This document shows positions 28,753 to 64,000 of a DNA stretch of 64,000 nucleotides, piece after piece. The notes beneath the pieces are model-generated. The model made no database searches. It was not told where the DNA came from and worked only from the letters and a program-made list of their open reading frames with translations. The stretch is from a virus. The stretch covers positions 1-64,000 of IMG/VR virus record IMGVR_UViG_3300010373_000005. The stretch is one strand, 5' to 3'. Made by a program: the position numbers and the translations under genes. Numbering within the stretch: the stretch's first letter is position 1; each line of letters begins with the position of its first letter.

Positions 28753-29000
28753 CACTCGCTCCTCCTGTAGTAGAGAAAAGTATGCCTCGACACCTCGTAG
28801 AACCACCCTCCCGCGTCCCTGAACCAGCCCTCGAACGGCGGCTGGTCCTCTCCCCCGCCGAACGCGTAGTGCACCTCGACGACTTCGCCGGACTCCAGCA
28901 TCACGTCGTAGTGCACCACGCGGGTGTCCCTGCCCTCAGGCATGGCCTCCGCGAACCACCAGTGGTCGGGACCGCACGGAGATGTGTCGCTCCAGGGCAT
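28752..29000 (-). CDS. hypothetical protein
   Basis: 82 aa with an ATG start. Trp-rich. Confidence 0.55.
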   Translation of the reverse strand: MPWSDTSPCGPDHWWFAEAMPEGRDTRVVHYDVMLESGEVVEVHYAFGGGEDQPPFEGWFRDAGGWFYEVSRHTFLYYRRSE

Positions 29001-31975: not shown

Positions 31976-33346
31976 CTATCGCCTCTTGTCCATATCCAGT
32001 GCCTGCAATAGCGCCTCGCACGTCAGCCGCGGGTGGTTGTGCTTCACGAGCATCTCGCGGTTGTGCTGCACGAGCTCCTGTGTTCGCATGTCATAGGCCC
32101 TGGTGACGCACGCATGGAGCAGGCGACATCGGGCCTCTGCCATTGGATCGCTCCCGGGGTCGAGGCCGTTCTTCCCGTCCTCCCACTGCACGCCGCCCTG
32201 GTGACCGTCGAGGGGAGGTTCAAATATCTCAATTTGAAATTGATCACAGTACCACGGTGTGAACGCCCTCGCCGTTATGGGTGCGCAGCCCGCGTCCATG
32301 GCCTCGAGCGTCGAGTACTCGAACAGGCCACCCGAGTAGTCGCTGGTCGTCACGGCCACGTGTACGTCGACGCCACTGAGGACCTCCAGCGGGTCCTCGT
32401 AGAGTCCCAGGAACGCCGCGCTCGCGTCCCAGCCGTGGAACTCCCACGGCAGCGCCCTGATCACGTCCATCGGGTCGTCGTCGGGACCGCCGCGGGTCGC
32501 GGTCCAGTGCCACAGGGCCTTGACGTGAGGGTCCTCGTCGGGTGCGGGTCGGCCCCACTGCACCTCTGCCTTCCTCACCAGCATCTCGTACATCAGGTAC
32601 GTCTCGCTGGGCGCCCTGCTCTGCGCGGAGCCTCCCGCTATGACTACGTCCCAGCCGGGAAGCAGTCCCTGCGTGATCAGCCACAGCAGGTAGTGCTGGT
32701 GCTTCTGCGTGGTGACCCGGCCGATCATTCCGACCGACGGCCGAGCCCGCATGGAGAACTCTCCAAGCGGGTTCCGGACGGCGTACGGCAGCCCCACGTG
32801 CACGTGGTGGCATGCCCGCAGTCGCTCGCTGTTGCAAGTCATCACGCCCGGCGTGGCGTTGTTCACTACCAGCCCGCTGAAGCTCTTCGTGCTAAGGAGC
32901 TCGCCCAGGTAGGGCGAGCCGCGCTCGCGGGACCAGCCCTTCGGGATCTCGCGCTCCTCGAAGAAATATCGGCCCCCGAGCGTGCACGTCCACGGCGTCC
33001 GGGTCGCCATCAGCACCTCGACGTACCGCGGGAAGTCGACCAGCCCCTTGTCCGCCTCGCGGTCATGGCTGTTGCACTTCGGCTCGGGGAGCACGATTAG
33101 ATCGAACTGATCTAGTACTTCTCCCCCTTCCTCGTACGAGAACGTGACGTCAGGAGCGACAAGGCTCGACATCCCGTTGCCCTTGTCCCGGACGATGCGG
33201 CCCCACTTGACCTTAGGTTTACCACTCTTAGTAAATCCTACTATATAGCACTCGTGGCCCATGGCCCTGAAGCCGTCGCGCACCTGGTTCACCCACGTGG
33301 AGATGCCGCACACGCGCGGCTCGGGGTCGTATATGGCGATTCGCAT
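31976..33346 (-). CDS. GT-B fold glycosyltransferase (GT4-like)
   Basis: 456 aa. N-terminal MRIAIYDPEPRVCGISTWV...GHECYIV. C-terminal GGLFEYSTLEAMDAGCAPI matches the E-x7-E sugar-donor motif. Confidence 0.7.
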   Translation of the reverse strand: MRIAIYDPEPRVCGISTWVNQVRDGFRAMGHECYIVGFTKSGKPKVKWGRIVRDKGNGMSSLVAPDVTFSYEEGGEVLDQFDLIVLPEPKCNSHDREADKGLVDFPRYVEVLMATRTPWTCTLGGRYFFEEREIPKGWSRERGSPYLGELLSTKSFSGLVVNNATPGVMTCNSERLRACHHVHVGLPYAVRNPLGEFSMRARPSVGMIGRVTTQKHQHYLLWLITQGLLPGWDVVIAGGSAQSRAPSETYLMYEMLVRKAEVQWGRPAPDEDPHVKALWHWTATRGGPDDDPMDVIRALPWEFHGWDASAAFLGLYEDPLEVLSGVDVHVAVTTSDYSGGLFEYSTLEAMDAGCAPITARAFTPWYCDQFQIEIFEPPLDGHQGGVQWEDGKNGLDPGSDPMAEARCRLLHACVTRAYDMRTQELVQHNREMLVKHNHPRLTCEALLQALDMDKRR

Positions 33347-48783: not shown

Positions 48784-49335
48784 TTAGAGCTGGGATGCCT
48801 CAATTAGAGCCTTACACCTAATGATAATCAGGCGCACCCCACCGAGGCTCAGGTTATAGTATTCCGCGAGAGACCTCATGGAGAACTTGTTCGTAGCGTA
48901 GTAGTTGTAGAGTTCAAGTTCTTCTTCCGGAGTGAGCTTGTGAGGGCGACCCTTCCCAGTAGTATACATATGCCCGGCCGCTATCGCATCTTTCATATTT
49001 GAGAGATGAGTGTCCCATCTCAAGTTGGTGATAGCGCAATTCATGGAATCACTGTCATTGTGGCAGGCTTCTAGTCCCGCAGGACATAAGCCCCTAAACG
49101 CCCTCAGCACTGCTACATGAACTCGAAGAGGGTTGGCAGAGTACATCCTGGCCGCTCTGTATTTTCCAATAGTGCTCTCCTCCACTCGTACTAACTCGTC
49201 GCCTTGCTCCCAGTCTACCCAGCTGCGACCGGCGACGCGGTTGTTCCAGATGGTCCACAACGTGCCGTCAGCACGCGCAAAGAATCCTAGCTCCCCGGGT
49301 ATGGGTCTTATTTCTACTCCGTCGTGCGTCAGCAT
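48784..49335 (-). CDS. HNH homing endonuclease
   Basis: CHNDSDSMNCAITNLRWDTHLSN (HNH_3), a NUMOD4-like N-terminus and a C-terminal HTH. Visibly lower GC than its neighbours. Confidence 0.8.
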   Translation of the reverse strand: MLTHDGVEIRPIPGELGFFARADGTLWTIWNNRVAGRSWVDWEQGDELVRVEESTIGKYRAARMYSANPLRVHVAVLRAFRGLCPAGLEACHNDSDSMNCAITNLRWDTHLSNMKDAIAAGHMYTTGKGRPHKLTPEEELELYNYYATNKFSMRSLAEYYNLSLGGVRLIIIRCKALIEASQL

Positions 49336-49349
49336 CTCGTTCTCCTACC

Positions 49350-51239
49350 TCAAACAAACTTTCGCTTAGCGTCATCAGATTTAGCAATAGCCCAGTTGGG
49401 ACCCCAGCCGATGGCCGCCTTGATAGGCACCCTGAACGGCCGCGACGGGCTCTCGAGCACCTTCACTATCTTGCGCAGGAAGCGCTCGTCCTGGCAGAGC
49501 TCGAGCGGGGCGTAGCCCGCCACCTCGTCGTGCACCTGCGCGAACATCTCGAACTCCGGCACCTCCTCGGCGAGGGCGACCATCCGCTCCCGGCAGAGCT
49601 CTCCCGCCGTGGACTGGCACAGGCTCGGCAGGGCCGTGTGTGCTGCCTGCTCCGGCAGGTGCCTGAGCGCGCCGTAGTGGTTGCGCACCGAGCCCCTGGC
49701 CCTGCACGCGGCGGCCGCGCGCTCCCTGACCGAGCGCAGCTCCGGCAGGTCCGCGTGATACTTGTCGAATACAGCGGTGGCGCGGTACGCGCAGGCACGC
49801 TCGACCGCGGCACGTCGGGCCTCAGGTGGGATTGTACTGTCATTGACAATTTCATCCCAGATGGTCCCGACGAACTTCTTGTTGATGGCCAGGGCGGCGA
49901 TCGTCTTCTTCTTTCCCTGCCCGAACCCGATGGCGAAGTTCAGCGTCTTGGCCGCGTCGCGGCTGCACGGTATCGAGTCGGCGATCATCTGGTGGAAGTC
50001 GGTCCACGGGTCGTCCTGGTACATCTGGATGCACCGCCGGTTCTCCAGGTAGTGCACCAGCACCCTGTACTCAACCTGCGAATAATCCGCGCAGATGATC
50101 CCGTAGCCCTCGGGAGCCTCGACCAGCGACTTGGCCGCGGTGTCGAACTGCTGCGGGTTGGGCTCGCTCGCGCTCAGCCGGCCCGTGCGCACCCTGCCGT
50201 TGAACGTCGGGTGCAGCCTGCTGTCGTCGGAGATGTGGCCCTTCTTCTCCCACGCCCCGACGAACAGCGACTGGAACGTGGACAGCTTCCTGTAGTCCAG
50301 GATGCCCTGCACGATCTCCGTGGGCGCGTCTGGGTGGTCCAGGTAGAGCGCGAGCGCGTCAGCGTCGAACGACGGCCCTGGCTTCGACATCGTGCCGTCC
50401 GCCCTCTCGCTCGGCTCGGTCCAGGCCAGCACCGGCAGGCCGAACTGGTTGCAGAGCACGTCGTAGCAGTCCTTGTTCGAGGTGGCCGAGAAGACCCGCC
50501 CGATGAGCTTCTCTAGCTCGTAGTCCTTCTCGAGCATCTTCTTGATCGTGTCAATGTGCGCTCGCTTGACCTTCTTCCGGTCGATGAGCATCCCGCGGCG
50601 CTCCATGTCGAAGAGCACGCGTTCGAACTTCTTCGACGTCTCCCAGACCTCGTCGGAGACCGCCGGGAAGTGCTGCTCCTGCCAGACGTCTAGCTTGATG
50701 TTCGTCCTCACGTCGACGCACGCGTACTCTGCCAGGATGTCCAGCGGCACGTCGCCGTAGTCCTTGGAGTCCTCGAGGTACGGGAGCATCGCGCGCCCGT
50801 ACTTGTCGATGTTCTCCTCGAGCAGCTGCTCGGAGAGGACGTCGAGCCCGTAGCCTCCCTTGTAGATCCTGTCAGAGTCGATGAGCTTCGCCCGCGTGAG
50901 CGTGCAGCGCATCTCCCTCTGGAAGACCTCATTCAGGTCGTTGGCCGACACGTGCGCGTCGTACTTGACGTGATGGTTGGTCCAGGCGGCGGATGCCCTG
51001 AGCACGTCGCCCCACCAGCCTGACATGAGCCGCTTCGGCACGAACCAGATAGGACTGTCGCGCCCGAACGCCACCGCGACGCCTATGGCTGAGCAGTGGT
51101 GCCAGGGATTGGTCGACTTGAGCTTCGGGTCTCCAGACGAGGTCTCAAAATCACAGTATAAGTTTGGTATTATACTTGGAACTGATGGAAGATCTCCATG
51201 AGTTTCACAAAGCATCCCACCAGATTCAAACTTTATCAC
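49350..51239 (-). CDS. family A DNA polymerase with 3'-5' exonuclease domain
   Basis: Exo I LYCDFETSS. Exo II NHHVKYDAH. Exo III YACVDV. Motif A ICADYSQVEYRV. Motif B RDAAKTLNFAIGFG. Motif C FAQVHDEV. The GTG start overlaps the HNH stop. Confidence 0.9.
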   Translation of the reverse strand: MIKFESGGMLCETHGDLPSVPSIIPNLYCDFETSSGDPKLKSTNPWHHCSAIGVAVAFGRDSPIWFVPKRLMSGWWGDVLRASAAWTNHHVKYDAHVSANDLNEVFQREMRCTLTRAKLIDSDRIYKGGYGLDVLSEQLLEENIDKYGRAMLPYLEDSKDYGDVPLDILAEYACVDVRTNIKLDVWQEQHFPAVSDEVWETSKKFERVLFDMERRGMLIDRKKVKRAHIDTIKKMLEKDYELEKLIGRVFSATSNKDCYDVLCNQFGLPVLAWTEPSERADGTMSKPGPSFDADALALYLDHPDAPTEIVQGILDYRKLSTFQSLFVGAWEKKGHISDDSRLHPTFNGRVRTGRLSASEPNPQQFDTAAKSLVEAPEGYGIICADYSQVEYRVLVHYLENRRCIQMYQDDPWTDFHQMIADSIPCSRDAAKTLNFAIGFGQGKKKTIAALAINKKFVGTIWDEIVNDSTIPPEARRAAVERACAYRATAVFDKYHADLPELRSVRERAAAACRARGSVRNHYGALRHLPEQAAHTALPSLCQSTAGELCRERMVALAEEVPEFEMFAQVHDEVAGYAPLELCQDERFLRKIVKVLESPSRPFRVPIKAAIGWGPNWAIAKSDDAKRKFV

Positions 51240-51787
51240 GGAAACACCAAATGAGTATACGATTGTCTACGAACTAGCTTATAAATAACTATGGGCAACA
51301 CGTTGTATTCTTCAGCAAGTCGTGTAATATCGTCACCTGCGGCGTGACGTTGGAGTATTCGCAATGCATCTGAGTCATGAAATAGAGCTCTCCAATGTCT
51401 ACCGCCTTGATTAGAAGTGCCGCATCGACGTTTGTCAAGCTCATTTGAACTATGGGTATCCCATCTCAAATTTTGAATGCTGCAGTTAGTCTCGTCACCA
51501 TCGTAGTGACAGCACTCTAAACCTGGAGGCTTGGGACCAACAAAGGCCTCTAACATCACGTGGTGTAAGTACGGTTGAACACCGTACATTGATACTACTA
51601 ATCTATCTGAAGCCTTGTTGTATACCGTAACACACGAGTGAAATTCTTCTCCAAGCTTCCAATCTCTTTGTGGTTGAGCTCTCCATCGTTTATACCATAA
51701 CGTCCATACTGAACCTTCTTCCCTAGCGAAATAGTGAGGGAATCTGGGGATCTCTCGTATCTCAAGCCCCTCGTGCAGCTCGATCAT
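51236..51787 (-). CDS. HNH homing endonuclease
   Basis: CHYDGDETNCSIQNLRWDTHSSN. The ATG at 51787 overlaps the kinase stop (ATGA). The gene is markedly AT-rich. Confidence 0.8.
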   Translation of the reverse strand: MIELHEGLEIREIPRFPHYFAREEGSVWTLWYKRWRAQPQRDWKLGEEFHSCVTVYNKASDRLVVSMYGVQPYLHHVMLEAFVGPKPPGLECCHYDGDETNCSIQNLRWDTHSSNELDKRRCGTSNQGGRHWRALFHDSDALRILQRHAAGDDITRLAEEYNVLPIVIYKLVRRQSYTHLVFP

Positions 51788-52344
51788 CCGACCAGCTCCC
51801 TCCATTCCTCGAACCTCGAGACGTACGCGTCGATGACGTCCTTCCAGCATGACTGGTCGGACACGACTGCGTCGATCCTGTACCTGAACTGCATGTCGCG
51901 CATGACGAAGGTCCCGTCGAGGTCCTCAGCCATCTGGTTGAACACGCTGTTCACCATGACGATGTGCTCGATGTCGTACATGTCGTCGCCCCTCTGGGCG
52001 TGCCTCTCGCGCACGGTCGCCTCGTCCGCAGTGACCAGCACGATGAATCCGCACGCCTCCCTGATCGCAGCGTCGACCAGGTCATACTTCAGAGGAGTCA
52101 GGCTCGACTCGTGGTCGTCGCACTTCCTGTACGCGAGCGCGTCGAGGTGGAACCTGTCGTACACCACGTGCGGTCGGATCATCTCCAGGTACCCGCCGTA
52201 GTAGTCGAAGCACGCGGGCGGCCGTGACAGGTGCGCCGCCATGTGCGGCAGCCCGCAGTCGTTTATCGCGGCCAGGGCCGCCCTGCAGAACGTGGACTTC
52301 CCGACTAAATCCCCACCACTGACTATAAGTATGATTTTACCCAT
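51784..52344 (-). CDS. P-loop kinase (dNMP kinase or DNA-base kinase candidate)
   Basis: ATG at 52344 with a GAAAGG RBS. Walker A IVSGGDLVGKST. 186 aa. Sits in the nucleotide-metabolism cluster. Confidence 0.65.
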   Translation of the reverse strand: MGKIILIVSGGDLVGKSTFCRAALAAINDCGLPHMAAHLSRPPACFDYYGGYLEMIRPHVVYDRFHLDALAYRKCDDHESSLTPLKYDLVDAAIREACGFIVLVTADEATVRERHAQRGDDMYDIEHIVMVNSVFNQMAEDLDGTFVMRDMQFRYRIDAVVSDQSCWKDVIDAYVSRFEEWRELVG

Positions 52345-52393
52345 CCTTTCAAACCAGAAACTGTTAGTTGAAGCTCTATTCCAGTTGGAGAGA

Positions 52394-52612
52394 CTAACAT
52401 GTCGGGTCTTCTCCTTCGTTAGTGACATTCTCGTCTGGTACCACGTCGCACGACGACGGGTCCACCCACCTCCACTTCCCGGCCGCGTCCTTGAAGTGAC
52501 CGCGACCGTCCTTGGACACGAACTGCACGCGCACCTTGGTGGGCCTGACGGCCCGATCCTCTATCTGCGTGGCCACGTACCACGTGCGCTCACTTAGCAT
52601 CAGTACAGGCAT
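52394..52612 (-). CDS. small hypothetical protein
   Basis: 72 aa. Overlaps the 3' end of the ThyA-like gene by 23 nt. Confidence 0.45.
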   Translation of the reverse strand: MPVLMLSERTWYVATQIEDRAVRPTKVRVQFVSKDGRGHFKDAAGKWRWVDPSSCDVVPDENVTNEGEDPTC

Positions 52613-53576
52613 TGCTTCTCCTCTGCATCAGGGGTGACCGTGGCGACCACTCCAGCGCGGGCCTGAGCTTGTTGCAGCACGCCCTGAGCAGGTCGGTCCC
52701 CATGCCGCCGAGCGCCTGCGCGCGAGCCTCGACCTCGAGCGGGTTGCCACCGTGGCGCAGGAGTGACTCCAGCTCGACCGCAAGCTTGACCGAGTCGAGC
52801 GTGTCGTCGAGCTGCCAGCCGTGTGGGACCTCTGTTGAGGTTCCGCTCGCCAGGGCCTCCCGAGCTCTCGTCTCGTTCCGCGCGTACAGGTGCATGCTGC
52901 CGACCTGGTGGTGGTACTCTCCCACCTGGAGGCCAAGCTCGCAGGCCACGACCCGCTGCAGGCACGTAAAGGCAAACACGTCGTACGGGAACCCGAGCCA
53001 CGCGTCGTTCGAGCGCATGGTCGTGACGATGTGGAGTGCCCCGTCGCGGGCCAAGAACTGCAGGCCGAGCGTACACGGCACGTCCGCGCACCCGCCTGAC
53101 TCAGCGACTGACAAGTCGTGTGGGTCCCAGAACTGGAGCACAGCCTGCCTGGAGAGCGAGGACTTCCTGAGCATGTCGACGATCCGCTCGAGCGCGGGTC
53201 GGTCGTCAGGCACCTGCGACGTGCCACTGAAGTCAGTGGTCACGTCCCAGGCCGCGAACATCCGCGGGCCGTACGCGCCGTACGCCGTGCCGTCCTGCCT
53301 GCGGTACTTGACATAGCTGGGGGCGTATTTCTCGATCATCTCCGTGCTGCCCTCGCCCGACATGTACCAGAGGAACTCTGCCGCCGCGTACGACGGCGAG
53401 AGGTTCCTGACATCGTTCGTGAGGAACGTCCGCTGCTTGCTGGCGTCCAGCACGCCCTTGTACCCGACGACCTCACCGCACACTGGGCCGTCACGAGAGT
53501 CTCTATTATTTGCGCAGTTCAGGAGCACGAACAGTAGGTGCTCCCACATGTTGTCGATGCTGTCGTAGATGCTCAT
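52590..53576 (-). CDS. ThyA-family pyrimidine C5 methylase/hydroxymethylase, predicted cytosine-specific
   Basis: The ATG at 53576 overlaps the upstream stop. Catalytic DVPCTLGLQF (Cys168), then RSNDAWLGFPYDVFAF and HLY. Asp199 (GAC at 52982..52980) sits where ThyA has the Asn of PFN. Confidence 0.75.
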   Translation of the reverse strand: MSIYDSIDNMWEHLLFVLLNCANNRDSRDGPVCGEVVGYKGVLDASKQRTFLTNDVRNLSPSYAAAEFLWYMSGEGSTEMIEKYAPSYVKYRRQDGTAYGAYGPRMFAAWDVTTDFSGTSQVPDDRPALERIVDMLRKSSLSRQAVLQFWDPHDLSVAESGGCADVPCTLGLQFLARDGALHIVTTMRSNDAWLGFPYDVFAFTCLQRVVACELGLQVGEYHHQVGSMHLYARNETRAREALASGTSTEVPHGWQLDDTLDSVKLAVELESLLRHGGNPLEVEARAQALGGMGTDLLRACCNKLRPALEWSPRSPLMQRRSNACTDAK

Positions 53577-54850
53577 GCTATCTCCTTCCACTTCCTGATG
53601 AGCCGGCCCGTCTTCGGGTCGACGTTGAACCTATGACACTGCTCCTGGCACTCTGCCGGGAACCTACCGATGTCGAAGTCTCGCGGGTAGTACTGCGTGA
53701 CGTCGATAACCTTCTCGTCCTGACCAGACGTGTCCTCGCCCTCGAACACACCGCGTACGTGATCGTACCGGGTGGACCAGTCCTCGGTAGGCCCACCCCA
53801 CTCGTCCTCCAGGCACTTCCTGCACATCTCCGCGATCCAGGTGGCCACGTCCGGCACGACGCCCTTGGCGATCTGGCTGAACGGGTCTGGCCCTACCGGT
53901 ATCTCGCCCCTCCATCCCATGATGTCGGCCAGCTCGCCGACCGTGCAGGGCCGGTGCCACCACGGGTGGAGCAGCCTGCAGCAGGAGTTGGTGAGCGTCG
54001 GGGCCGCGCACATCCACGCCGGTCGGTGCACCCCGTGCATGCTGAACGGCATGTCTGACATCCGCTCGTCCCACTTCGCCTTGAAGGCCGGTGACAGCTT
54101 TTCGTAGTCGTACTGCGCCAGCGTGTTGGCGTCCCACCCGCTGGCCATGTGCGGCAGCGAGTGCCACTCGTCCGCGGTCAGTTGCAGGTACGAGTCCTGA
54201 TCGTACCCCCCGTCCCTGATCATCGGCAGCGGGTCGACGACATTGCACTCCCGGTGTCGCCTCTCGGAGATCGCGTCCCACAGCATCGGAGCGTGCTCCA
54301 GCATCGGCGGCAGGTCGACGTTGAACTGCCTGTCTCTGGGGTAGGCCACCTGGAAGTACCGCTTGCGATTCTGCGCGTTACCGAAAGTCCGGGCGTTCAC
54401 GAACACGTGCGCGACCCGGTAGCCGTTCTCGATGAATCTTCTAGTAAAAGAATCCACGAGGGGCTTCCCTGTGCGGTAGGCCTGCTGGACAGACTCCCAC
54501 ACGATGAGCGAGAACTCGTAGGCCAGCCCGTAGTCGACCAGCTCCTTGACGTCCTGGCACTGCCTCGCCTCGGGGCCGTGACCGGTAGAGGACAACCCCG
54601 CCGTCACGTTCGAGAACGCGGTACATCTTGGATTGCCGTAGAGCACGTCGATCCTGCCGTGACCCAGTGCCACTGGCGCGGGCCACGCGCAGGCTCCATC
54701 AGCCGGTCGGATCACTGGCACCTTCCAGACCTTCTCCACTGTGTCGTCGCCCAGCCCGTGCACCTCCAGCTGGGCCTTCACGTCGAACACGTCCTTGAAA
54801 CCTGCGGTCATCCCGCCGGCGAACACGTGGCATCCTAGTGCCTTGATCAT
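53573..54850 (-). CDS. C5 cytosine methyltransferase-fold protein
   Basis: Motif I CHVFAGGMTAGF. Motif IV GNPRCTAFS (P-R-C instead of P-C). Motif VI VWESV. Motif VIII QNRKRYF. Motif IX RPCTVGELADIMGW. Motif X IAKGVVPDVA. Confidence 0.7.
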   Translation of the reverse strand: MIKALGCHVFAGGMTAGFKDVFDVKAQLEVHGLGDDTVEKVWKVPVIRPADGACAWPAPVALGHGRIDVLYGNPRCTAFSNVTAGLSSTGHGPEARQCQDVKELVDYGLAYEFSLIVWESVQQAYRTGKPLVDSFTRRFIENGYRVAHVFVNARTFGNAQNRKRYFQVAYPRDRQFNVDLPPMLEHAPMLWDAISERRHRECNVVDPLPMIRDGGYDQDSYLQLTADEWHSLPHMASGWDANTLAQYDYEKLSPAFKAKWDERMSDMPFSMHGVHRPAWMCAAPTLTNSCCRLLHPWWHRPCTVGELADIMGWRGEIPVGPDPFSQIAKGVVPDVATWIAEMCRKCLEDEWGGPTEDWSTRYDHVRGVFEGEDTSGQDEKVIDVTQYYPRDFDIGRFPAECQEQCHRFNVDPKTGRLIRKWKEIA

Positions 54851-55479
54851 GCCAGTCTCACTCCCCGGCAGTGCGACCTGCCGTGCTCGTCGAACTGCCT
54901 GAGGGCCCTGTGCAGTGACTCACCGCACAGCGCGCACTCGTCTGTGGACCTGAAGTCATGAGGACTCAACTGAAATTGACGATAGTCTGTCAGCACTCGC
55001 AAAAAGTTCGCAGGAATGTAATTGGGTCCTTTGCGACGCACACGAGCTTTTGAAGGATCATCTTCTTGTTTGGTCTTCGTCATGTTCGACTCGTGAGCTT
55101 CTACGAAGCCCTCGGCGAGCGGCAGGTCGAGCGTCACGGCCGTGCCCTTGATGACGTACAGGGCGTCGGCCAGGGCGTCGAGCGTCTCCACCTCGTCTCG
55201 CTCGGAGAGAGCCATCAATAGCTCCTCGATCTCCTCGACGACGAGCTGGGCACGGGCCACGCGCTCGTCGTCGCTATGCTCAACCAGCATGCGCTCGAAC
55301 TTGTCGGCCAGGCCCTTCAGGCTCAGCGCCGACTGGTACAGCTGCTCGTCCACCACCTCCTTGAGCCTCGGGTCGGACAGCCTCTGGGTCGGACACACCT
55401 GTAGCTTCGTGTGGAAGCCCTTCACGCAGGCCATGGCGCTGTTGATACCGGTTACTATCTCGTTTCTGAGCTCCCTCAC
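54847..55479 (-). CDS. MazG-like all-alpha NTP pyrophosphohydrolase
   Basis: VVEEIEELLMAL....ETLDALADALYVIKG.......FVEAHESNMTK is the MazG/HisE-type metal-binding pattern. The GTG start overlaps the upstream stop. Confidence 0.7.
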   Translation of the reverse strand: MRELRNEIVTGINSAMACVKGFHTKLQVCPTQRLSDPRLKEVVDEQLYQSALSLKGLADKFERMLVEHSDDERVARAQLVVEEIEELLMALSERDEVETLDALADALYVIKGTAVTLDLPLAEGFVEAHESNMTKTKQEDDPSKARVRRKGPNYIPANFLRVLTDYRQFQLSPHDFRSTDECALCGESLHRALRQFDEHGRSHCRGVRLA

Positions 55480-55727
55480 GGTGTCACCTCCCCTCTGTAC
55501 TCGCTGGTCTGCCTCTCGCAGAACTCAGCTATGGTGAACAGGCAGTCGGCATCGAACGTCGACTGCTGTGCTGGAAAGAAGTTATACCTTCGCCAAGAAG
55601 CATACCACTTCACCTCTCCTAAGAAGTGACCGGTCACAGCTTCGACGTGCCAGGTCTTGGTCTTCTTACCTGCATTCTCGTTGGCATGACTCACGTCCCT
55701 GAACAGTATGTGATCGCTCGTCTTCAT
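55476..55727 (-). CDS. hypothetical protein
   Basis: 83 aa with an ATG start, 1 nt after the helicase stop. Confidence 0.5.
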   Translation of the reverse strand: MKTSDHILFRDVSHANENAGKKTKTWHVEAVTGHFLGEVKWYASWRRYNFFPAQQSTFDADCLFTIAEFCERQTSEYRGEVTP

Positions 55728-55728
55728 G

Positions 55729-58578
55729 TCAGAACTTCTTCTCCTTTCCGTCCTTGTCGGTCTCCTTCTTGAGGTGGTCGGGACGATCGACGATCGTCGT
55801 CCTGTTCAACCACTCGATGAACTCCGGTGTCTTCACGTACGTGCGCCCGATCTTCTTGAGCGCCTGCTTCCTCACCAGCACCGACAGCAGGTTGCCGGCT
55901 ATGCCGTAGTCACCTCCCACCCAGTCCCGCAGGTCATGCTGGTCCACGTAGTCGGAGAACAGCAGGTGCTGGTGCAGGTCCTTCGGATTGATCGTCGACT
56001 CGATGGCGGACTTGATCTCAGCCGGGTCGCGCAGGACGTGCGTCTGCTGCAGGGCCCTCGAGTAGTACTCGTACCCGAAGATCTTGGACGAGTAGACCCT
56101 GTCGAGGAGCGCCACCACGAACTTGACGTGGCACCTCCTCACGCGCACCTTTGTCTCGTCCTCGTCCTGCGTCGAGAAGGTCCGGCACGCCACTGACGCG
56201 GCGAGCCTCGAGAGCTTCTCAGGCATAGAGCCTGCATCGACCAGTGGTATCTGCGCGCTGTACTTCTTGGACAAACTGACTGCTTCTTCGTGCGCGTGCT
56301 CTGACGCGTCCTCGTCGAACAGCACGTCACCGCGCTTACGAGTCCAGGCCCACAGGATCAGGGAGTGGCACAGCTCGCTAGTGTACACGTGCGGCACGTC
56401 CGGCGGGTTGCGCCTGAGCTCGTCGAGGACTCCCGGATCGACCTCCTCCTTGCTGACTATCAGTGCTGCGTCGAACCTGCGGATGTCCTCGGGCGCACCG
56501 ATCAGGTCCCTGACCGCTTCCACGCCGAACGCGTAGGATGACACGGTCCTGTCGTGCCTGCAGTTCGAAAGACCGACCAGTCTGGTCCTGGCGAGCGTTC
56601 GCTTCTTCTCGATCTTGGTAATCTCAGCCACACCGGACGACCGCATGTCGGTGCACTTGCTGAAAGCCTCTGTAGACATGCCCTTCATCTCCTCGAGCCC
56701 GACGAGTCGCCGGTCGTGGGTCGGTATGACGCCCCAGGAGATGATCCACTGCTCGCCCACCTTCTTGACGCCGCCCAACAGGCCGGCCGGAGTGGCGCCC
56801 TTGCAGACCAGCTTCTCCCCGACGCGGTAGTGCCTCAGTAGGTTGTCGAAGACGTAACTCTTGCCCTGGGCTGAGTCCCCGACAATGAGCGTCTCGACCC
56901 ACCCCTTGACCTCCTTGCCGTCCAGGTCGAGCAGCAGCGGCGAGTGGTACGCCAGGTCGACGAACAGGTGGACGTCGTGCCGCATGAAGATCCTGGTGAC
57001 GTTGCGCTCCAGGTCAGAATAGAGGTGATGGAGCTTCGTCTCGATACCCTCCCTGGACCACTCGTCGGGCCTGAAGACGCGGAGCTTCTCGAGGTCAGTG
57101 GGCACGTACGTGCTGAGGGCATCGTGGGCGGCCTCGGCCTCTGATAGGACCAGCGTCGCCTGTTGGTTCTGCGGGTGCGGGAACATCCTGCCGGTGAACT
57201 CGTAGGACGCGTTCAGCTCTCCTGTGCAGCTGACGCACAGGCCGCGCCTGGCGGACTTGTCCACGTCCTGATTGGAGATCTCGAGTGACGGTGCTATCTG
57301 TACGTCCTCCACGTCGAAGTGGCCGGTCACGTCGAGCTGCGCGTCCTTGCACGCACGCGGGACTCTTATGGCGTCGCGCATGGCGCCGTCGAGGTGCTGA
57401 CTCGCTGCGTGCACCATCTGCAGTATGGAGGGCGACTCTGGGCTCACGTCGAACTCAGTGGCGTCGGACGCGTACACCGCGCACAGCGGGCAGCAGTTCT
57501 GCATCTTCCCACACTTGACCTTGACCCTGCGCGGTACCACGTAGTGACCGACCACCGACGCCGACACCACGCCGCTGAACCTCATCCGGCGCCCGACGTT
57601 GGTCGCTCTCACCGTCTCGTGCAGCCTGCAGGACAGCACCGACTCTTCGCCATTCACCTGATGATCAGGTACGGCATCTGGGAGCCACTGTGGAGTACCG
57701 AGGACGAGGGCGACCAGGTCACCGCTCTCCGCAGCCACGAAGTCGTTGACGTCTCCCTTGGGATGCTTGTCCCTGTCGAGGGGCAGCTGCACCCAACCGA
57801 GCCAAGAGGCGACCAGTCTCAGTCGCATCAGGTGCGCCTCTGCTGCCTTGACTCCCGCGTCATCCACGTCCATCATGACGTAGACCTTCTTGCCCTTGAA
57901 CTCCATAGTCAGCTCGGGCTCCCAGTTGCCCTCGCCTGCCGTGGCACACACCGCGCCTATCCCGTGTGAGTTAAGCAGTCGCGCTGCCAGTATGGCCTTC
58001 ATCTCGCCCGCGCAAAGCACGATCGTCTCGTATTCCATCTGTTCTATCGGGTACAGGCGGGTCTGCCCGCGCCCGCTGAGATTTCGCATCTTCTCAGGAC
58101 CGGGGGCTCCAGGAAGATACTTGCGGATGTTCACGAACAGCCCGTGGGCGTTCTTGACTGGGATGGTGACCCGGCCGTCCTGATACCCGATGCGGTACTT
58201 CCGCAGGTCCTCGTCCGTGATGCCCCGGTCCCTGAGCGCCTTCAGCAGGTGGGGCTGGGACGGGAGCATCTGGAACGCAGTCTCCACCACGCTCACGTCG
58301 ACGGTCTTGACCTCCTCGAGGTCGTACATTGTCGACAGAAACTTGAAGACGGTGGAACGGTTCTTCCCGGTGGCCAGCGAGTAGAACTGGACGAAGTCTC
58401 CCTTAGCAGGACACACCTTACAATTCCACAGACCGCTCTCCACGTTCATCGTGGCCGAGGGGTCCTTGTCATCATGCCCGGGATCTGGACACTGTAGCTT
58501 CACCTCTGAGTCTGACAGTGGTTTGAAGGTCCACTTCAGGCGCTCGAGCTCGGCTAGTACTGAGATCCTTGACGCCAT
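55729..58578 (-). CDS. DnaG-type primase (CHC2 Zn finger + TOPRIM) fused to an MCM-like AAA+ helicase
   Basis: CPDPGHDDKDPS....WNCKVCPAKGD. TOPRIM LCAGEMKA...MMDVDDAG. Walker A GDSAQGKS. Walker B LVGLEEM. LVGLSNCR and IRRFDAAL (Arg-finger-like). Confidence 0.8.
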   Translation of the reverse strand: MASRISVLAELERLKWTFKPLSDSEVKLQCPDPGHDDKDPSATMNVESGLWNCKVCPAKGDFVQFYSLATGKNRSTVFKFLSTMYDLEEVKTVDVSVVETAFQMLPSQPHLLKALRDRGITDEDLRKYRIGYQDGRVTIPVKNAHGLFVNIRKYLPGAPGPEKMRNLSGRGQTRLYPIEQMEYETIVLCAGEMKAILAARLLNSHGIGAVCATAGEGNWEPELTMEFKGKKVYVMMDVDDAGVKAAEAHLMRLRLVASWLGWVQLPLDRDKHPKGDVNDFVAAESGDLVALVLGTPQWLPDAVPDHQVNGEESVLSCRLHETVRATNVGRRMRFSGVVSASVVGHYVVPRRVKVKCGKMQNCCPLCAVYASDATEFDVSPESPSILQMVHAASQHLDGAMRDAIRVPRACKDAQLDVTGHFDVEDVQIAPSLEISNQDVDKSARRGLCVSCTGELNASYEFTGRMFPHPQNQQATLVLSEAEAAHDALSTYVPTDLEKLRVFRPDEWSREGIETKLHHLYSDLERNVTRIFMRHDVHLFVDLAYHSPLLLDLDGKEVKGWVETLIVGDSAQGKSYVFDNLLRHYRVGEKLVCKGATPAGLLGGVKKVGEQWIISWGVIPTHDRRLVGLEEMKGMSTEAFSKCTDMRSSGVAEITKIEKKRTLARTRLVGLSNCRHDRTVSSYAFGVEAVRDLIGAPEDIRRFDAALIVSKEEVDPGVLDELRRNPPDVPHVYTSELCHSLILWAWTRKRGDVLFDEDASEHAHEEAVSLSKKYSAQIPLVDAGSMPEKLSRLAASVACRTFSTQDEDETKVRVRRCHVKFVVALLDRVYSSKIFGYEYYSRALQQTHVLRDPAEIKSAIESTINPKDLHQHLLFSDYVDQHDLRDWVGGDYGIAGNLLSVLVRKQALKKIGRTYVKTPEFIEWLNRTTIVDRPDHLKKETDKDGKEKKF

Positions 58579-60802: not shown

Positions 60803-61708
60803 CTAGGACAGTTGTACACCATCTTCACGTCTTTTTTGAAAATATTCCTGAACTTTCCGCCTGAAGGCCTCCGGCGCTGTCAGCGACCACTTGAGCAGGC
60901 CCTGCTCGTCGTTCTCGACGTGCTCGCGCGGGCTGAAGCCAGGAAGCATGAGCCTGCGCCCGCGAGTGTCTCTGTCCTGAAGAGATCCGTGGTGCATGTG
61001 TACGATCGAGCCCATGACGAACCCGAATGACAGCAACTCGCCGTTCGCCCAGCGGCGCACGTCGTTCTGCACCGTGCTGCCTACCTCCGACGTCCGGAAC
61101 GGGTCGACGCCCGTGAAGGCCCTGAGCATCAGGGTGTCACCGTTGCCTGTGACGGCCCGGTCGTACAGCCTGAAGCCACGCCTGAGGTGACTCGCGCGCA
61201 TCGCCCAGGCCATGCCGGGGTGACTCTGCGCGAAGTCGCACCACATCTTGGCGTACGTCGACCAGTGCCAGCCCGTGGACTTCACGGGCGTCGTGATCCT
61301 CTCGTCAGAGTCCGTCAGTGACGCGTCGCTGAACATCTGCACGACGTCGTATCGTTCCAGCTCCCTGAGCGTGTCGGCCTCCCACCTCGGATTGACGAAG
61401 ATCACGTCCGCGTCGACCCACGCGACGGCCGTGACCTCCGGGTCTCGCAGTGCCTTCGCGAAGCCAACGTTGAGCAATGCCTCCTTCTGCCACATCCAGT
61501 TCTCGGCTCGGGTGCCACGGAGCGTCGTCCAGGCGTGCAGGCCTCGGCTGATGACGTCATTGTCATTGACACTGACGTCATCGTCGAGGACTAGTTCCAC
61601 TATGTGTACCGGCCTGTCGATGACGTGCAGGAACCTCTTCAAGTTCTCGACGGGTCGCCGGTACTGGCACGGGTTGAAGTGACACGCTACCACAGCTAGC
61701 TTCGGCAT
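60803..61708 (-). CDS. nucleotide-diphospho-sugar transferase-like (GT-A fold) protein
   Basis: 301 aa. LAVVACHFNPCQYRRP and AWVDADVIF (DxD-type) patterns. Family assignment is tentative. Confidence 0.5.
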   Translation of the reverse strand: MPKLAVVACHFNPCQYRRPVENLKRFLHVIDRPVHIVELVLDDDVSVNDNDVISRGLHAWTTLRGTRAENWMWQKEALLNVGFAKALRDPEVTAVAWVDADVIFVNPRWEADTLRELERYDVVQMFSDASLTDSDERITTPVKSTGWHWSTYAKMWCDFAQSHPGMAWAMRASHLRRGFRLYDRAVTGNGDTLMLRAFTGVDPFRTSEVGSTVQNDVRRWANGELLSFGFVMGSIVHMHHGSLQDRDTRGRRLMLPGFSPREHVENDEQGLLKWSLTAPEAFRRKVQEYFQKRREDGVQLS

Positions 61709-62340
61709 CGCGCCTCCTGCCAGGAGAGCTTCTCAGGAGAAGTCTCCTCGCCGGGGAGCGACACGAACTTGGCACGTGGGCGCTGGCACTCGTGCGGCAC
61801 TGCCTCCCAGAAGTACACGGCCAGCGACTTCCTGAGCACGCCCGGAGGGCACGGGATGGGTCGTGGCACACCGTGGTAGGAGAAGTCGTTCGTCTGGAAC
61901 GCGACCAGCCTGTTACGCCTGGGCAGCACGCTGGCCTGCTTCTTGCCCTCCCAGAACTCGAGCCCACCGCCCCACTCTGCCGACCACTCGCCGACGAAGA
62001 GCACGAGGTTGAGGGCCCGCCTGAAGCCGGTCCTCGGGTGCACGTCGCAGTCGAGATGCAGGTCGAGCACCCCGCCCGACGGCATCGCGTGCATGCCACC
62101 GCCGTGCAGCGTCTCGTCTGTGGTCAGTCCCGCGGGGCAAAGAAGCTGCAGCTGGGCAAGAAGGGAAGCACATACGGGTGGTACTGCCTTATTAGCCGCG
62201 AGCTTTCGCTCGCCAGGGCTGTCGTACTTGACCCACCCCTCCCAAGACTCGTCCGGAAATTCCTCCGAAGCTTGAGCGACCAGTCCGGCATCGAGCGCCC
62301 CGTCGTAGACATCCCAATAGAAGTCATCGCCTCCCGCCAT
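61696..62340 (-). CDS. 2OG-Fe(II) oxygenase (prolyl-4-hydroxylase-like)
   Basis: ATG at 62340. HxD in VLDLHLDCD, distal His in FSYHGV, and WGGGLEFW...RLVAFQ jelly-roll strands. Confidence 0.7.
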   Translation of the reverse strand: MAGGDDFYWDVYDGALDAGLVAQASEEFPDESWEGWVKYDSPGERKLAANKAVPPVCASLLAQLQLLCPAGLTTDETLHGGGMHAMPSGGVLDLHLDCDVHPRTGFRRALNLVLFVGEWSAEWGGGLEFWEGKKQASVLPRRNRLVAFQTNDFSYHGVPRPIPCPPGVLRKSLAVYFWEAVPHECQRPRAKFVSLPGEETSPEKLSWQEARCRS

Positions 62341-63053
62341 GACTCGAAGAGGGGCCAGACCCGCTCCCTCCAGTATGGCAGGTCGTACGGGTTGCGGTCC
62401 CCCTGCTCGAACAGGCATGCCGTCTCCTTCCTCGTGAAGTGCCTCGAGGGCCATATCTCTACTCCATGTGAGTTCTGATCAATTTCCTCCCAGTCTCGCG
62501 ACCGGACTGCCTCGTTGTCGAACCAGAAGAACGTGCCCGAGTAGTGCCACGGCACCACCTGCTGCACCCCGCTGAAGTAGCACTGCGGGCGTCGGAAACA
62601 CCCGGCCATGTGGTGCTCTTCCATGGCCGCGTCTAGTAATTTAGGCCAGTCCAGGCACACGTGCGTCATGACGTCGACCCACAGCCTGACAGACTCGTAG
62701 CACGCCTGCTGGTGCGTGTGCGTGACTCCCTTCGCGTGACAGTAGAAAGTCCTGCCCGGCTGGTCGACTACGGCGCGCACCAGCGGACGCCACGTCACCA
62801 CCTCCCTGAGCTGCGGGTCGTTGTCGTAGATCTCTATCTCCGCGTCGGGAGGAAGCTCGTCTGCCACCTCCTGCGGGTCGGCCGTCTCGACCGTTATGTC
62901 TTCGGTGACAACCACGGGCTCGGCAGACGTGACCACTGCGACGACCTTCTTCCCGTCGAACTGGTCCCAGCGCTCCGCCAGCATGCGCAGCAGGCGCTGC
63001 CACTCGGAGCTGGTCTTCACCGGCCAGACGTGAACCAGGAGATGACTCTTCAC
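62124..63053 (-). CDS. hypothetical protein of the modification cluster
   Basis: The GTG at 63053 overlaps the MTase stop (GTGA). HLLVHVWPV, FYCHAKGVTH and YSGTFFWF motifs. The last 72 or so codons run out of frame into the oxygenase gene. Confidence 0.5.
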   Translation of the reverse strand: MKSHLLVHVWPVKTSSEWQRLLRMLAERWDQFDGKKVVAVVTSAEPVVVTEDITVETADPQEVADELPPDAEIEIYDNDPQLREVVTWRPLVRAVVDQPGRTFYCHAKGVTHTHQQACYESVRLWVDVMTHVCLDWPKLLDAAMEEHHMAGCFRRPQCYFSGVQQVVPWHYSGTFFWFDNEAVRSRDWEEIDQNSHGVEIWPSRHFTRKETACLFEQGDRNPYDLPYWRERVWPLFESWREAMTSIGMSTTGRSMPDWSLKLRRNFRTSLGRGGSSTTALASESSRLIRQYHPYVLPFLPSCSFFAPRD

Positions 63054-63577
63054 AGGCTGCACTCCTCCACCCGGAGGTGGAACCTGTTCTCGTGCCTCGT
63101 CCTGGGAAGCCACGTCATTATGTCGAGGTCACTCCACTGCCTGAACAGCGGGTTGGCACGCGCCATAGGGAACCAGTAGTCGTCGCAGCCTGGCTCGATG
63201 CGCTCGATGCGCAGCCTGCGCGGGTATCCCCCGAAGAAGATCTGCGGGAATACGTCGCTCATGTGACGAAAGAAGTTGATCGACACGACGCCCTCGTGGC
63301 CGATCACCATGGCCATCTCGCTGGTCGCGTCTGGGCACCGGATCTCGACGGTAGCTCCTACCTTGCAGACGCGGGCCACCTCGCGCAGGAACGTGATAGG
63401 GCACCTGACGTGCTCGATGCAGTGGCTGGAGTACAGCTGGTCGACGGACGCGTCCTCGAACGGCCACGGGGTGTCGTTAAGGTCGTGCACCATGTCGGCG
63501 CACGCCAGCATGTCTACGTTCACGAAGCCCTCGCCCCTGGGCCTGTCACCGCCGCCTATCTCGATCTTGAGTGTCAA
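63050..63577 (-). CDS. class I SAM-dependent methyltransferase
   Basis: TTG start with an AGGAGG RBS 6 nt upstream. LKIEIGGGDRPRGEGFVNVD (motif I) and VDQLYSSHCIEHV. Confidence 0.7.
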   Translation of the reverse strand: MTLKIEIGGGDRPRGEGFVNVDMLACADMVHDLNDTPWPFEDASVDQLYSSHCIEHVRCPITFLREVARVCKVGATVEIRCPDATSEMAMVIGHEGVVSINFFRHMSDVFPQIFFGGYPRRLRIERIEPGCDDYWFPMARANPLFRQWSDLDIMTWLPRTRHENRFHLRVEECSL

Positions 63578-63605
63578 CGCTCACCTCCTGTATATGCTTG
63601 ATCCA

Positions 63606-64000
63606 TCACGGAAACTCCCGATGCCTGGGGCCTTCGACATCCCCTGCCACTATTGCTAATGCTTTATTGAATTCATGAAGACGACAGCAGTGCTGACACT
63701 CCGGTATGACGTCGACGCCGTTCCTGACCATGTCGCACCGGCGCTCTCCGAGCCATATCTCGTCGAACCTCTCGTCGTGCAGGTTACCGAACGTGAAGGC
63801 CTCCTGACCTCGGTGGTACGCGCACACGGATACACTACCATCATGCCAGACAAACGGAATAATCCTATGACCATGACATTTAGGATACTCGTGAGGCTTG
63901 AGATAGTCCTTCCACTTATAAGAAGTAGACTCGATCTCGACTCCGCAATTCACGTACTCCTCCAGCCATGTCGGGAATGTCACTGGCTGCTGCAGCGCGA
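63606..64000 (-). CDS. radical-SAM-type protein, C-terminal (SPASM/twitch-like) part, 5' end outside window
   Basis: The frame stays open to the window edge upstream of the GTG at 63983. Cys-rich C-terminus: CHGH...VCAYH...CDM...ECQHCC. Confidence 0.4.
   Translation of the reverse strand, partial: ALQQPVTFPTWLEEYVNCGVEIESTSYKWKDYLKPHEYPKCHGHRIIPFVWHDGSVSVCAYHRGQEAFTFGNLHDERFDEIWLGERRCDMVRNGVDVIPECQHCCRLHEFNKALAIVAGDVEGPRHREFP

Follow-up and report, generated by a model that had tools for sequence, protein, structure and literature searches.

A predicted T4-like supply module for 5-hydroxymethyl-dCTP in an uncultivated phage lineage, with an atypical C5-cytosine-methyltransferase-fold gene embedded in it

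What does a phage do with a tight run of genes that seem directed at its cytosine nucleotides, and why does one of them resemble a DNA methyltransferase (MTase)? The question is raised by positions 51784–55479 of the stretch of viral DNA analyzed here (the window: the 64,000 nucleotides at positions 1 to 64,000 of the IMG/VR virus record IMGVR_UViG_3300010373_000005). Four genes on the minus strand encode a MazG-like NTP pyrophosphohydrolase, a C5-MTase-fold enzyme, a ThyA-like enzyme of the thymidylate synthase (TS) family, and a P-loop kinase. We consider it probable, if not strongly so, that the block is a module that supplies 5-hydroxymethyl-dCTP (5hmdCTP) by the logic of phage T4, with a C5 transferase of a non-ordinary kind embedded in it. 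Such a supply module is an already known kind of system, T4-like and resembling the association of TS, PRA-PH, and deaminase found by MetaGPA; the new element is the C5-MTase-fold enzyme, a variant of its fold. An earlier prediction, made from the letters of the window, called the block a cytosine-hypermodification core. That label exceeds the evidence: Three of the genes form the predicted supply module, and the role of the MTase-fold gene in it is putative.

A conserved cassette in an uncultivated phage lineage

The loci examined are the contexts of three relatives from a metagenomic protein collection, together with 32 IMG/VR loci retrieved by means of motifs from the family itself. Genes for primase, MazG-like protein, MTase-like protein, TS-like protein, kinase, and PolA (the family A DNA polymerase) stand in this order in approximately 33 out of 36 independent loci, and the arrangement is therefore not due to chance. 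The cassette proteins of the related loci are 27%–57% identical to those of the window. On contigs of sufficient length to judge, the MTase-like gene never occurs without a TS homolog carrying Asp143 and Asp177 (E. coli ThyA numbering).

The MTase-like family has at least 187 members among metagenomic proteins, the longest of their contigs reaching 85 kb. None of its members was found in 50,697 isolated phage records, where tblastn gave just two cyanophage methylases at 24% identity; the same records yielded nothing for the kinase by tblastn and no nucleotide match to the 9.2-kb block by megablast. Given these null searches, no isolated phage can act as a model. We also found no relatives of the MTase-like family in 185,579 species genomes, hence no prophage or host clue. 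We read the block as a module that is operon-like and vertically conserved in a lineage of uncultivated, siphovirus-like phages with high GC, a PolA, and a DnaG/MCM-type primase-helicase.

Within the conserved frame of the cassette, HNH genes, small open reading frames (ORFs), and a dCMP deaminase vary in presence among the related loci. The deaminase gene is present in about half of them, after the kinase. We see it at 12675–13100 in L005, in the same place in L017, L019–L023, L025, L026, L029, and L031–L033, and at other positions in L001 and L037. The window lacks it and has the flavin-dependent thymidylate synthase ThyX elsewhere; the patchy occurrence of the deaminase as against ThyX points to differing solutions for dUMP/dTMP supply within one lineage. 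L001 is Manatee Spring virus (GenBank MW202657; region 10945–12728), whose backbone consists of a MazG-like protein, a "pyrimidine hmase" with the same diagnostic residues as the window protein (see below), the dCMP deaminase, and PolA. A 415-aa protein without a Pfam match lies there between the TS and a kinase ORF unannotated in the record.

The ThyA-like protein is a predicted dCMP hydroxymethylase

The ThyA-like gene (52590..53576, minus strand) encodes a TS-fold protein of 328 aa. Its longest ORF spans 52590–53591, and the start is the ATG at 53576, which overlaps the stop codon of the MTase-fold gene as ATGA. The protein matches PF00303 (9e-24, 84.5 bits against a cutoff of 24.3) and phrog_160 (8e-43). 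Against the best NCBIfam ThyA equivalog it scores 72 bits, where the cutoff is 327, and all thymidylate synthase equivalog cutoffs are far from reached. The best PDB match is the CMP 5-hydroxymethylase MilA (3e-31), and BLASTP aligns the protein with T4 gp42 (6e-10), placing D199 on D179.

We aligned the window protein with 33 homologs from related loci, E. coli ThyA, T4 gp42, and a fragment of MilA, the ThyA and gp42 reference sequences being exact matches to PDB chains. Asp199, whose original numbering is right in the 328-aa protein, aligns with gp42 Asp179, MilA Asp186, and E. coli ThyA Asn177, and so stands at the base-recognition position, as had been proposed. Relative to E. coli ThyA, Cys146 is kept (Cys168 in the 328-aa protein, within DVPCT), as are Asp169, Ser167, and Arg126; the changes are L143D, H147T, Gln165 to Met, and N177D. 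With D, T, and D where ThyA has Asn177, His147, and a hydrophobic residue at 143, this is not a canonical ThyA. The diagnostic residues D143, C146, T147, D169, D177, S167, and R126 are invariant in all 34 sequences (the window protein and its 33 homologs).

Experiments on related enzymes give these positions a meaning. Asp at position 177 leads to selection of cytosine (PMC8670742; PMC13326640). An acidic residue at 143 goes with a hydroxymethyl rather than a methyl product, as in T4 gp42 and MilA, and methyl-forming TS homologs have a bulky hydrophobic residue there (PMC13326640); the Asp of the ThyA-like enzyme would give water access, as in those two proteins. Asn at 169 is diagnostic for the newly described flavin-dependent 5-hydroxy-dCMP (5hodCMP) synthases and is carried by every one tested (PMC13326640). 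Specificity for deoxyribose is marked by Ser167 and Arg126′, in place of which MilA has Ala and Lys (PMC5175136). Since every known determinant of gp42-type specificity is present, we predict that the ThyA-like protein is a T4 gp42-type dCMP 5-hydroxymethylase, neither a methylase nor a 5-hydroxylase. The original prediction had left the choice between a dCMP methylase and a hydroxymethylase; its cytosine specificity stands, and D143, D169, and Ser167/Arg126 narrow it to the hydroxymethylase.

We see only the slightest of chances that the enzyme makes 5-methyl-dCMP (XP12-type), 5-hydroxy-dCMP (RB69-type), or hydroxymethyl-CMP for a nucleoside natural product (MilA-type) instead. Such products could be argued from the Asp at the N177 position, which is common to all cytosine-specific TS homologs, and from MilA being the top-scoring PDB match. 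However, Asp at the L143 position speaks against 5-methyl-dCMP, the retained Asp169 against 5-hydroxy-dCMP, and the deoxyribose-type Ser167 and Arg126 against a MilA-type product; a further point against these alternatives is the location of the gene, in a phage and between primase and DNA polymerase.

A kinase and a pyrophosphohydrolase on either side of the predicted hydroxymethylase step

The kinase gene (51784..52344, minus strand; 186 aa) most likely starts at 52344, which is Met29 of the longest ORF (51784–52428), to judge from the starts of its homologs and the gene call on an ENA contig of the same phage. The window protein alone has no Pfam match; it matches phrog_761, "thymidylate kinase," at 1e-7, and carries the motifs GxDxxGK(S/T) and DRFHxSExAY. 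Its homologs start MLIIEGxDLVGKTT and share an invariant Asp-Arg followed by xxSxxAY. The resulting DR(F/Y)xxSxxAY, present in the family, is the nucleotide-binding motif of thymidylate kinases (TMPKs). A single-sequence search gave two proteins and a profile search 66 relatives, for several of which the JGI name is thymidylate kinase. The profile built from 19 members matches SPbeta prophage YorR (2axp) at 1e-14 and then thymidylate kinases, and 18 of the 19 match PF02223 weakly. The AlphaFold2 model (mean predicted local distance difference test, pLDDT, 96) has YorR as its top Foldseek match, with a template modeling (TM) score of 0.72–0.77, followed by structures of TMPKs and deoxynucleoside kinases (dNKs).

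Motif, profile matches, and fold argue that the kinase acts at the dNMP level. We predict from its sequence and model that it is a dNMP kinase, a functional analog of T4 gp1, that would convert 5-hydroxymethyl-dCMP (5hmdCMP) to 5hmdCDP. Two substrates had been considered for it at first, a modified dNMP and a base already in DNA; of these, the former is supported. A kinase acting on the 5-hydroxymethyl group of 5-hydroxymethylcytosine (5hmC) in DNA would be an analog of 5-HMUDK, with the MTase-fold enzyme then displacing the phosphate, which its residues Lys329 and Arg75 could possibly bind. The match that favors this, to the DNA 5-hmU kinase M6 gp54, is weak (hhalign probability 58%) and confined to 62 columns from the P-loop to the following Asp-Arg. 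We regard such a DNA-level role as very improbable, given the thymidylate kinase motif of the family, its matches to YorR and TMPKs, and its YorR/TMPK/dNK-like fold; moreover, no phage kinase identified here would then be left to take 5hmdCMP to the diphosphate.

The MazG-like gene (54847..55479, minus strand; 210 aa) encodes a MazG/PRA-PH-type all-alpha NTP pyrophosphohydrolase (PF01503, 5e-10, 40.1 bits against a cutoff of 21.3; phrog_671, 2e-17). It keeps the metal-binding acidic motif EExxE ... DxxD, and R76, E82, E83, E86, D101, and D105 are invariant in 19 homologs. A statistical association links the PRA-PH domain to viral contigs with modified cytosine, where it co-occurs with Asp177-type TS homologs (PMC8670742). 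A role as a dCTPase, converting dCTP to dCMP, is plausible for this candidate. The C-terminus (54847–54960) has a Cys-rich tail, CxxC ... HC / C.G, in the window and its three closest relatives (L006–L008), and the tail is missing in more distant relatives; it looks like a small zinc-binding motif.

Taken together, these enzymes would replace dC by 5-hydroxymethyl-dC ahead of replication. The MazG/PRA-PH pyrophosphatase would take dCTP to dCMP. From dCMP and methylene-tetrahydrofolate the TS-fold enzyme, whose specificity determinants are tied to experiment, would form 5hmdCMP, which the thymidylate-kinase-like enzyme would phosphorylate to 5hmdCDP. Host nucleoside diphosphate kinase would complete 5hmdCTP, for incorporation by the phage PolA. 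ThyX would provide dTMP separately, and glycosyltransferase-like genes elsewhere may decorate the 5-hydroxymethyl group. The hydroxymethylase, kinase, and MazG-like protein would in this way rebuild the T4 route to 5hmdCTP, in line with the T4-type logic first suggested for the block. A supply module of this kind helps predict which metagenomic phages have restriction- and CRISPR-resistant DNA.

A C5-methyltransferase fold with altered active-site motifs

The MTase-fold gene (53573..54850, minus strand; 425 aa) is translationally coupled, by 4-nt overlaps, between the MazG-like and TS-fold genes, that is, between the predicted first and second steps of the route. Its product is an atypical member of the C5-cytosine DNA MTase fold. 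It matches PF00145 partially (2e-8, 34.5 bits against a cutoff of 22) and phrog_116, and scores 28 bits against TIGR00675, for which the cutoff is 100.65. The AlphaFold2 model has a pLDDT of 94.1, and its top Foldseek matches are MET1, M.HaeIII (TM 0.70–0.73 on the target), and DNMT1; CmoX, the 5-carboxymethylcytosine enzyme of Synechococcus phage S-B43 (8yf3), ranks 41st. Foldseek gave nothing closely related in either solved structures or predicted viral ones, identity being at most 21% in the matches listed.

The apparatus for a flipped cytosine is intact. Cys76, Glu119 (in ESV), Gln160, Arg162, and Arg164 are invariant in 68 aligned sequences, as is Glu29 of motif II, the putative binder of the cofactor ribose. 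The motifs NPRC, ESV, QxRxR, and AKG are invariant in the same sequences and across 35 loci, and the catalytic residues are under strong purifying selection.

Several motifs around this apparatus are altered. The P-R-C catalytic loop remarked on in the original prediction is real and invariant across the family: Arg75 stands where Pro-Cys enzymes have Pro, in 35 of the 36 loci and all 68 aligned proteins. In alignments, NPRC falls on the SPPC of CmoX (HMMER) and on the FPC of HhaI (MAFFT). The Gly-Asn of motif X is replaced by Ala, Gly, or Val followed by Lys329 (Ala-Lys in the window), and the Lys is found in all 35 NPRC members. Lys329 corresponds to HhaI Asn304 by HMMER and hhalign, and to CmoX Arg350 by MAFFT. 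The motif I loop reads FAGGF, two residues shorter than the FxGxGG-type loop of HhaI and CmoX (MAFFT). There is also a conserved C-terminal extension of approximately 75 aa, and the 68 sequences of the NPRC family show strong conservation of a region that varies among ordinary C5-MTases.

The position of Lys329 is one that controls the choice between S-adenosylmethionine (SAM) and carboxy-SAM. In CmoX, Arg350 contacts the carboxymethyl group of carboxy-SAM (PMC12783734), and the substitutions N374K in M.MpeI and N377K in M.MedI lead to carboxymethyltransferase activity with carboxy-SAM (PMC12015181). Because the residues of covalent catalysis are kept while Arg replaces Pro and Lys occupies this controlling position, we read the protein as a predicted DNA cytosine-C5 transferase that is not an ordinary 5-methylcytosine (5mC) methylase and that probably attaches a non-methyl group. 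It most likely handles an anionic group beside C5. This group could belong to a carboxymethyl-type donor, moved to cytosines that escaped replacement, or be the substituent of 5hmC itself. Our literature searches found no C5-MTase-fold enzyme described as paired with a dCMP hydroxymethylase.

The most distant MTase-like relative is an 843-aa fusion in L037 (7914–10445), in which a class I methyltransferase domain accompanies a C5 methylase domain of full length. In the C5 domain, with NPPC and a motif X Gly-Arg, a CmoX-type signature, this relative is the single exception to NPRC/Lys among the 36 loci. The L037 phage has a Prim-Pol primase, and its Asp143/Asp177 TS homolog lies 6 kb from the fusion. 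The class I MTase-like genes of the window, L002, and L037 are not CmoA-like: BLASTP against the CmoA proteins of S-B43 and E. coli gave matches that were insignificant or covered the SAM-binding segment only. (The identity of the E. coli CmoA query is supported only by its 3e-33 match to S-B43 CmoA.) We found no homolog of the S-B43 pyrophosphatase in the window or the related loci L001–L039.

Weighing the role of the methyltransferase-fold enzyme

A number of observations weigh against a supply module with a non-ordinary transferase embedded in it. Complete replacement by 5hmC leaves no free C5, so that the two activities look redundant or conflicting; ways out of the conflict would be residual cytosines (with SAM or carboxy-SAM as donor), 5hmC as the substrate, or host DNA as the target. 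All loci come from one phage lineage, in which gene adjacency can be historical, and T4 keeps dam beside gene 56 and primase, which illustrates that adjacency alone proves no shared pathway. Manatee Spring virus has the same backbone and no MTase-like gene. M.MedI-N377K still methylates fully with SAM (PMC12015181), so an enzyme with Lys at this position may yet be a plain methylase. The window protein has NPRC rather than the SPPC motif of CmoX, and neither CmoA nor CmoY has a homolog in the window or L001–L039 (phmmer, E ≤ 1). On the supply side, specificity for dCTP is guessed for the MazG-like protein from context; this protein has no detectable similarity to T4 gp56, and there is no gp56 homolog in the window or related loci.

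How far can the role of the MTase-fold protein be narrowed? We consider it possible, though less likely than not, that the NPRC/Lys329 protein founds a new class of the C5-MTase fold, one that works with pre-replicative 5hmC, either by substituting the hydroxyl through a Cys-C6 intermediate or by carboxymethyl-type transfer. In the latter case every cytosine would carry one of two C5 adducts; in both, the outcome would be a cytosine hypermodification or a dual-modification state as yet undescribed in any virus. We think it unlikely, without dismissing it, that the protein is instead an ordinary SAM-dependent, sequence-specific 5mC methylase with an anti-restriction function that merely shares an early/replication operon. 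This would imply partial 5hmC replacement, or action on leftover cytosines or host DNA. It agrees with the gathering score passed for PF00145, the invariant Cys, Glu, Arg-x-Arg, and ribose-binding Glu29, the M.HaeIII- and DNMT1-like fold, the full SAM methylation retained by M.MedI-N377K, the T4 precedent of dam adjoining the dCTPase gene, and the absence of CmoA from the loci. It is at odds with the Arg-Cys, Ala/Gly-Lys, and short motif I loop, which depart from the consensus in every NPRC-type member, and with the score far under the TIGR00675 cutoff. The strong conservation of the normally variable region would be unexpected in an enzyme matching diverse host restriction systems, and the gene is always accompanied by the Asp143/Asp177 TS where contigs are of sufficient length to judge.

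We find it somewhat harder still to believe that the protein acts after replication on 5hmC in DNA and so creates a new cytosine hypermodification. In this chemistry Cys76 would add to C6, the 5-hydroxyl would leave with the assistance of Lys329 and Arg75, and a nucleophile would add to the exocyclic methylene; the enzyme would be a functional analog of the kinase plus aGPT-Pplase step in thymidine-hypermodifying phages. The idea accounts for the strict linkage and translational coupling of a C5-directed enzyme with a dCMP hydroxymethylase. C5-MTases are reportedly able to couple thiols to 5hmC in vitro (work ascribed to the Klimasauskas laboratory). They form covalent adducts with 5hmC DNA and destabilize the C5 substituent (PMC11347137). 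Arg75 and Lys329 occupy the positions nearest the C5 substituent, the Asn position of motif X being the one that contacts the transferred group in CmoX, and the cofactor site may be altered, to judge from the shortened motif I loop. On the other hand, the proposal is purely inferential and has no known natural precedent; the invariant Glu29 is more in keeping with a SAM-like donor than with a free nucleophile, the loci show no consistently linked candidate enzyme to supply the nucleophile, and the CmoX-like signature of L037 points to transfer of a donor group.

The MTase-fold enzyme is a more valuable lead than the supply module. Its naturally fixed change falls at the very position that is mutated in the engineering of carboxymethyltransferases from CpG methylases, and a second cationic residue is added next to the catalytic Cys. 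Should it use a non-methyl donor or a 5hmC substrate, this would be new DNA chemistry and a potential tool for epigenome labeling or 5hmC-selective derivatization.

Layout of the block and its neighbors

All four ORFs originally proposed at 51784–55479 are present on the minus strand at the positions given for them, and the minus strand is the coding strand for every gene of the region. The motifs quoted in their support, DVPCTLGLQF, RSNDAWLGFPYD, and GNPRCTAFS, are all found in window proteins. We read the junctions from the sequence directly and then compared them with the gene calls of L039, the same phage on ENA contig k141_5289394.

The conserved replication-modification block begins with a primase/MCM-like helicase of 949 aa (55729..58578; phrog_47 and phrog_18685, with weak matches to PF01807 and PF00493), which precedes the cassette in nearly all related loci. 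A promoter-like consensus (58683–58656) and a terminator-like site (58732–58714) lie just upstream of the primase gene. An 83-aa ORF of unknown function follows (55476..55727), whose stop overlaps the MazG-like start by 4 nt; it has no family match in Pfam or PHROG scans, and an equivalent small ORF is found in L003, L004, and L006. The junctions of this ORF with the MazG-like gene, of the MazG-like with the MTase-fold gene, and of the latter with the TS-fold gene are all 4-nt ATGA/GTGA start/stop overlaps with ribosome-binding sites. Translational coupling had been proposed for all four genes. It is borne out at the two junctions on either side of the MTase-fold gene; the TS-fold and kinase genes are separated by a 72-aa ORF (52394..52612) and a 49-nt gap. 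This second small ORF, of unknown function, has a good ribosome-binding site and no Pfam or PHROG family match. Its position is kept in relatives (65 aa in L002), with no sequence similarity detected between them.

Nor does the block sit directly upstream of the polymerase gene, as had been thought: An HNH_3 homing endonuclease gene (51236..51787; PF13392, 6e-11) intervenes, joined to the kinase stop by an ATGA overlap. The family A DNA polymerase follows (49350..51239; PF00476, 6e-36; phrog_17, 3e-78), and a second HNH_3 homing endonuclease gene (48784–49335) lies on its other side. Most related loci lack HNH genes at these positions; the two genes around PolA therefore look like recent mobile insertions, outside the pathway.

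Independent assemblies of this phage exist in JGI, Logan, and ENA data: two contigs, 78,574 and 78,382 nt long, and a fragment of 38,307 nt. They start at different points, which would fit a genome of approximately 78 kb that is circularly permuted or terminally redundant. A tRNA scan found no tRNA genes in the window. In the rest of the genome the virion module is Mu/HK97-like and the accessory replication proteins are Pam3-like, so the remark that the genome does not look T4-like holds.

ThyX, glycosyltransferases, and a second cluster

The separate ThyX (27811..28806, minus strand), first pointed out as the source of dTMP, is supported by phrog_85 (4e-62) and PF02511 (1e-8). PHROG scans of 20 further window proteins returned ThyX and a weak endonuclease match only. 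The several glycosyltransferases (GTs) first listed for the window fared unevenly. An RGP (GT75)-like glycosyltransferase or sugar mutase (30371..31510, minus strand) passes the Pfam threshold (PF03214, 3e-10). It has no PHROG or NCBIfam match and no similarity to the T4 alpha- or beta-GT; we treat it as a candidate for sugar transfer to 5hmC or for sugar-nucleotide supply, a link to DNA that would follow from context. A possible GT-B (GT1-type) enzyme (31976..33346, minus strand) stays below threshold (PF13692, 5e-4, 20.8 bits against a cutoff of 27), and a GT-A-like protein (60803–61708, minus strand) is recognized by its sequence pattern and DxD motif, with no family match in Pfam, PHROGs, or NCBIfam. 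A GT2 lies outside, just past the window end, in the gene calls of L039. Homologs of the T4 alpha- and beta-glucosyltransferases were found neither in the window nor in related loci.

The GT-A-like gene belongs to a second candidate modification/glycosylation cluster upstream of the replication block (minus strand, 60803..64000 and beyond; L039 5755–10906), delineated from the L039 gene calls and Pfam. The cluster also holds a 2-oxoglutarate (2OG)-Fe(II) oxygenase (61696–62094 or longer; PF13640), an unknown protein of 309/329 aa with a 252-aa paralog (62124–63053), a class I methyltransferase-like protein (63050–63577), and a radical SAM/SPASM enzyme (63606 to past the window end). Comparable sets of radical SAM, methyltransferase, and GT genes occur in two relatives, one of them with an NDP-sugar epimerase; that of L002 is a trio of radical SAM, methyltransferase, and GT2-like genes. 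The second cluster and the GT genes could decorate 5hmC or the virion. We considered the oxygenase as a TET/JBP-type 5mC oxidase and rejected this: Its only Pfam matches are PF13640 and PF13661 (prolyl-hydroxylase-like), and it is unlinked to the MTase in relatives.

Comparison with known systems

The predicted module follows the logic of T4, namely, dCTP depletion, dCMP hydroxymethylation, phosphorylation, and polymerization. The T4 pathway consists of the dCTPase gp56, the dCMP hydroxymethylase gp42, the dNMP kinase gp1, and alpha/beta-glucosyltransferases. The window hydroxymethylase is a true homolog of gp42 with identical specificity residues, and both phages have a separate thymidylate synthase. 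The suggestion that the window uses protein families different from those of T4 thus does not hold for the ThyA-like enzyme. It does hold for the pyrophosphatase, which is of the MazG/PRA-PH type, and likely for the kinase, which is thymidylate-kinase/YorR-like; the PDB profile search returned no gp1 structure, and no direct comparison was made. In further contrast to T4, the window has no T4-type glucosyltransferase, its polymerase is of family A, its virion module is Mu/HK97-like, and its genes form one tight operon with an embedded C5-MTase-fold gene, which T4 does not have. If our reading is right, this widespread lineage of uncultivated, non-T4 phages has a T4-type replacement of cytosine in which some of the components differ, the pyrophosphatase being MazG-type and the kinase thymidylate-kinase-like.

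The contigs identified by MetaGPA carry an Asp177 TS homolog, a PRA-PH pyrophosphatase, and a dCMP deaminase, with or without a 5hmC carbamoyltransferase (PMC8670742). The window shares with them the TS with Asp177 and a residue other than His at 147, and PRA-PH, and roughly half of the related loci have the deaminase as well; the window differs in lacking both carbamoyltransferase and deaminase. The main text of that study makes no mention of PF00145 or "DNA_methylase," a statement that does not extend to its full list of 110 associated domains (PMC8670742).

The 5-hydroxy-dCMP synthases of RB69, DLP3, and RL38J1 have the TS fold, N177D, and an acidic residue 143, as the window protein does, and are accompanied by a dNMP kinase and glycosyltransferases, the RL38J1 kinase being thymidylate-kinase-like (PMC13326640). 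Their diagnostic D169N is absent from the window protein and from all 33 relatives. The thymidine-hypermodification clusters of Pseudomonas phage M6/YuA-like viruses (PMC8989533) offer a likeness in layout: A siphovirus with Pam3-like accessory genes for replication encodes a TS homolog, and a family A polymerase follows a few genes downstream. The clusters also share the principle of a pre-replicative hydroxymethylpyrimidine with possible post-replicative tailoring thereafter. In the window, however, the base is cytosine and not uracil, there is no aGPT-Pplase/AADT or pyridoxal phosphate enzyme, and the kinase is no clear 5-HMUDK.

For the MTase-fold protein, the nearest comparison is the CmoX/CmoA/CmoY system of 5-carboxymethylcytosine in Synechococcus phage S-B43 (PMC12783734; PDB 8yf3). 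Both proteins have the C5-MTase fold with Cys, Glu, and Arg catalytic residues, matching at 95% probability in a profile-profile comparison, and both carry a cationic residue at the HhaI Asn304 position (Arg350 in CmoX, Lys329 in the window). The distant family member of L037, with its NPPC and Gly-Arg, shares more of the CmoX signature. The window protein is set apart by NPRC in place of SPPC, Lys in place of Arg, a shorter motif I loop, and an extra C-terminal domain. No CmoA or CmoY lies nearby; it is linked instead to a predicted dCMP hydroxymethylase, a partnership not reported for CmoX systems.

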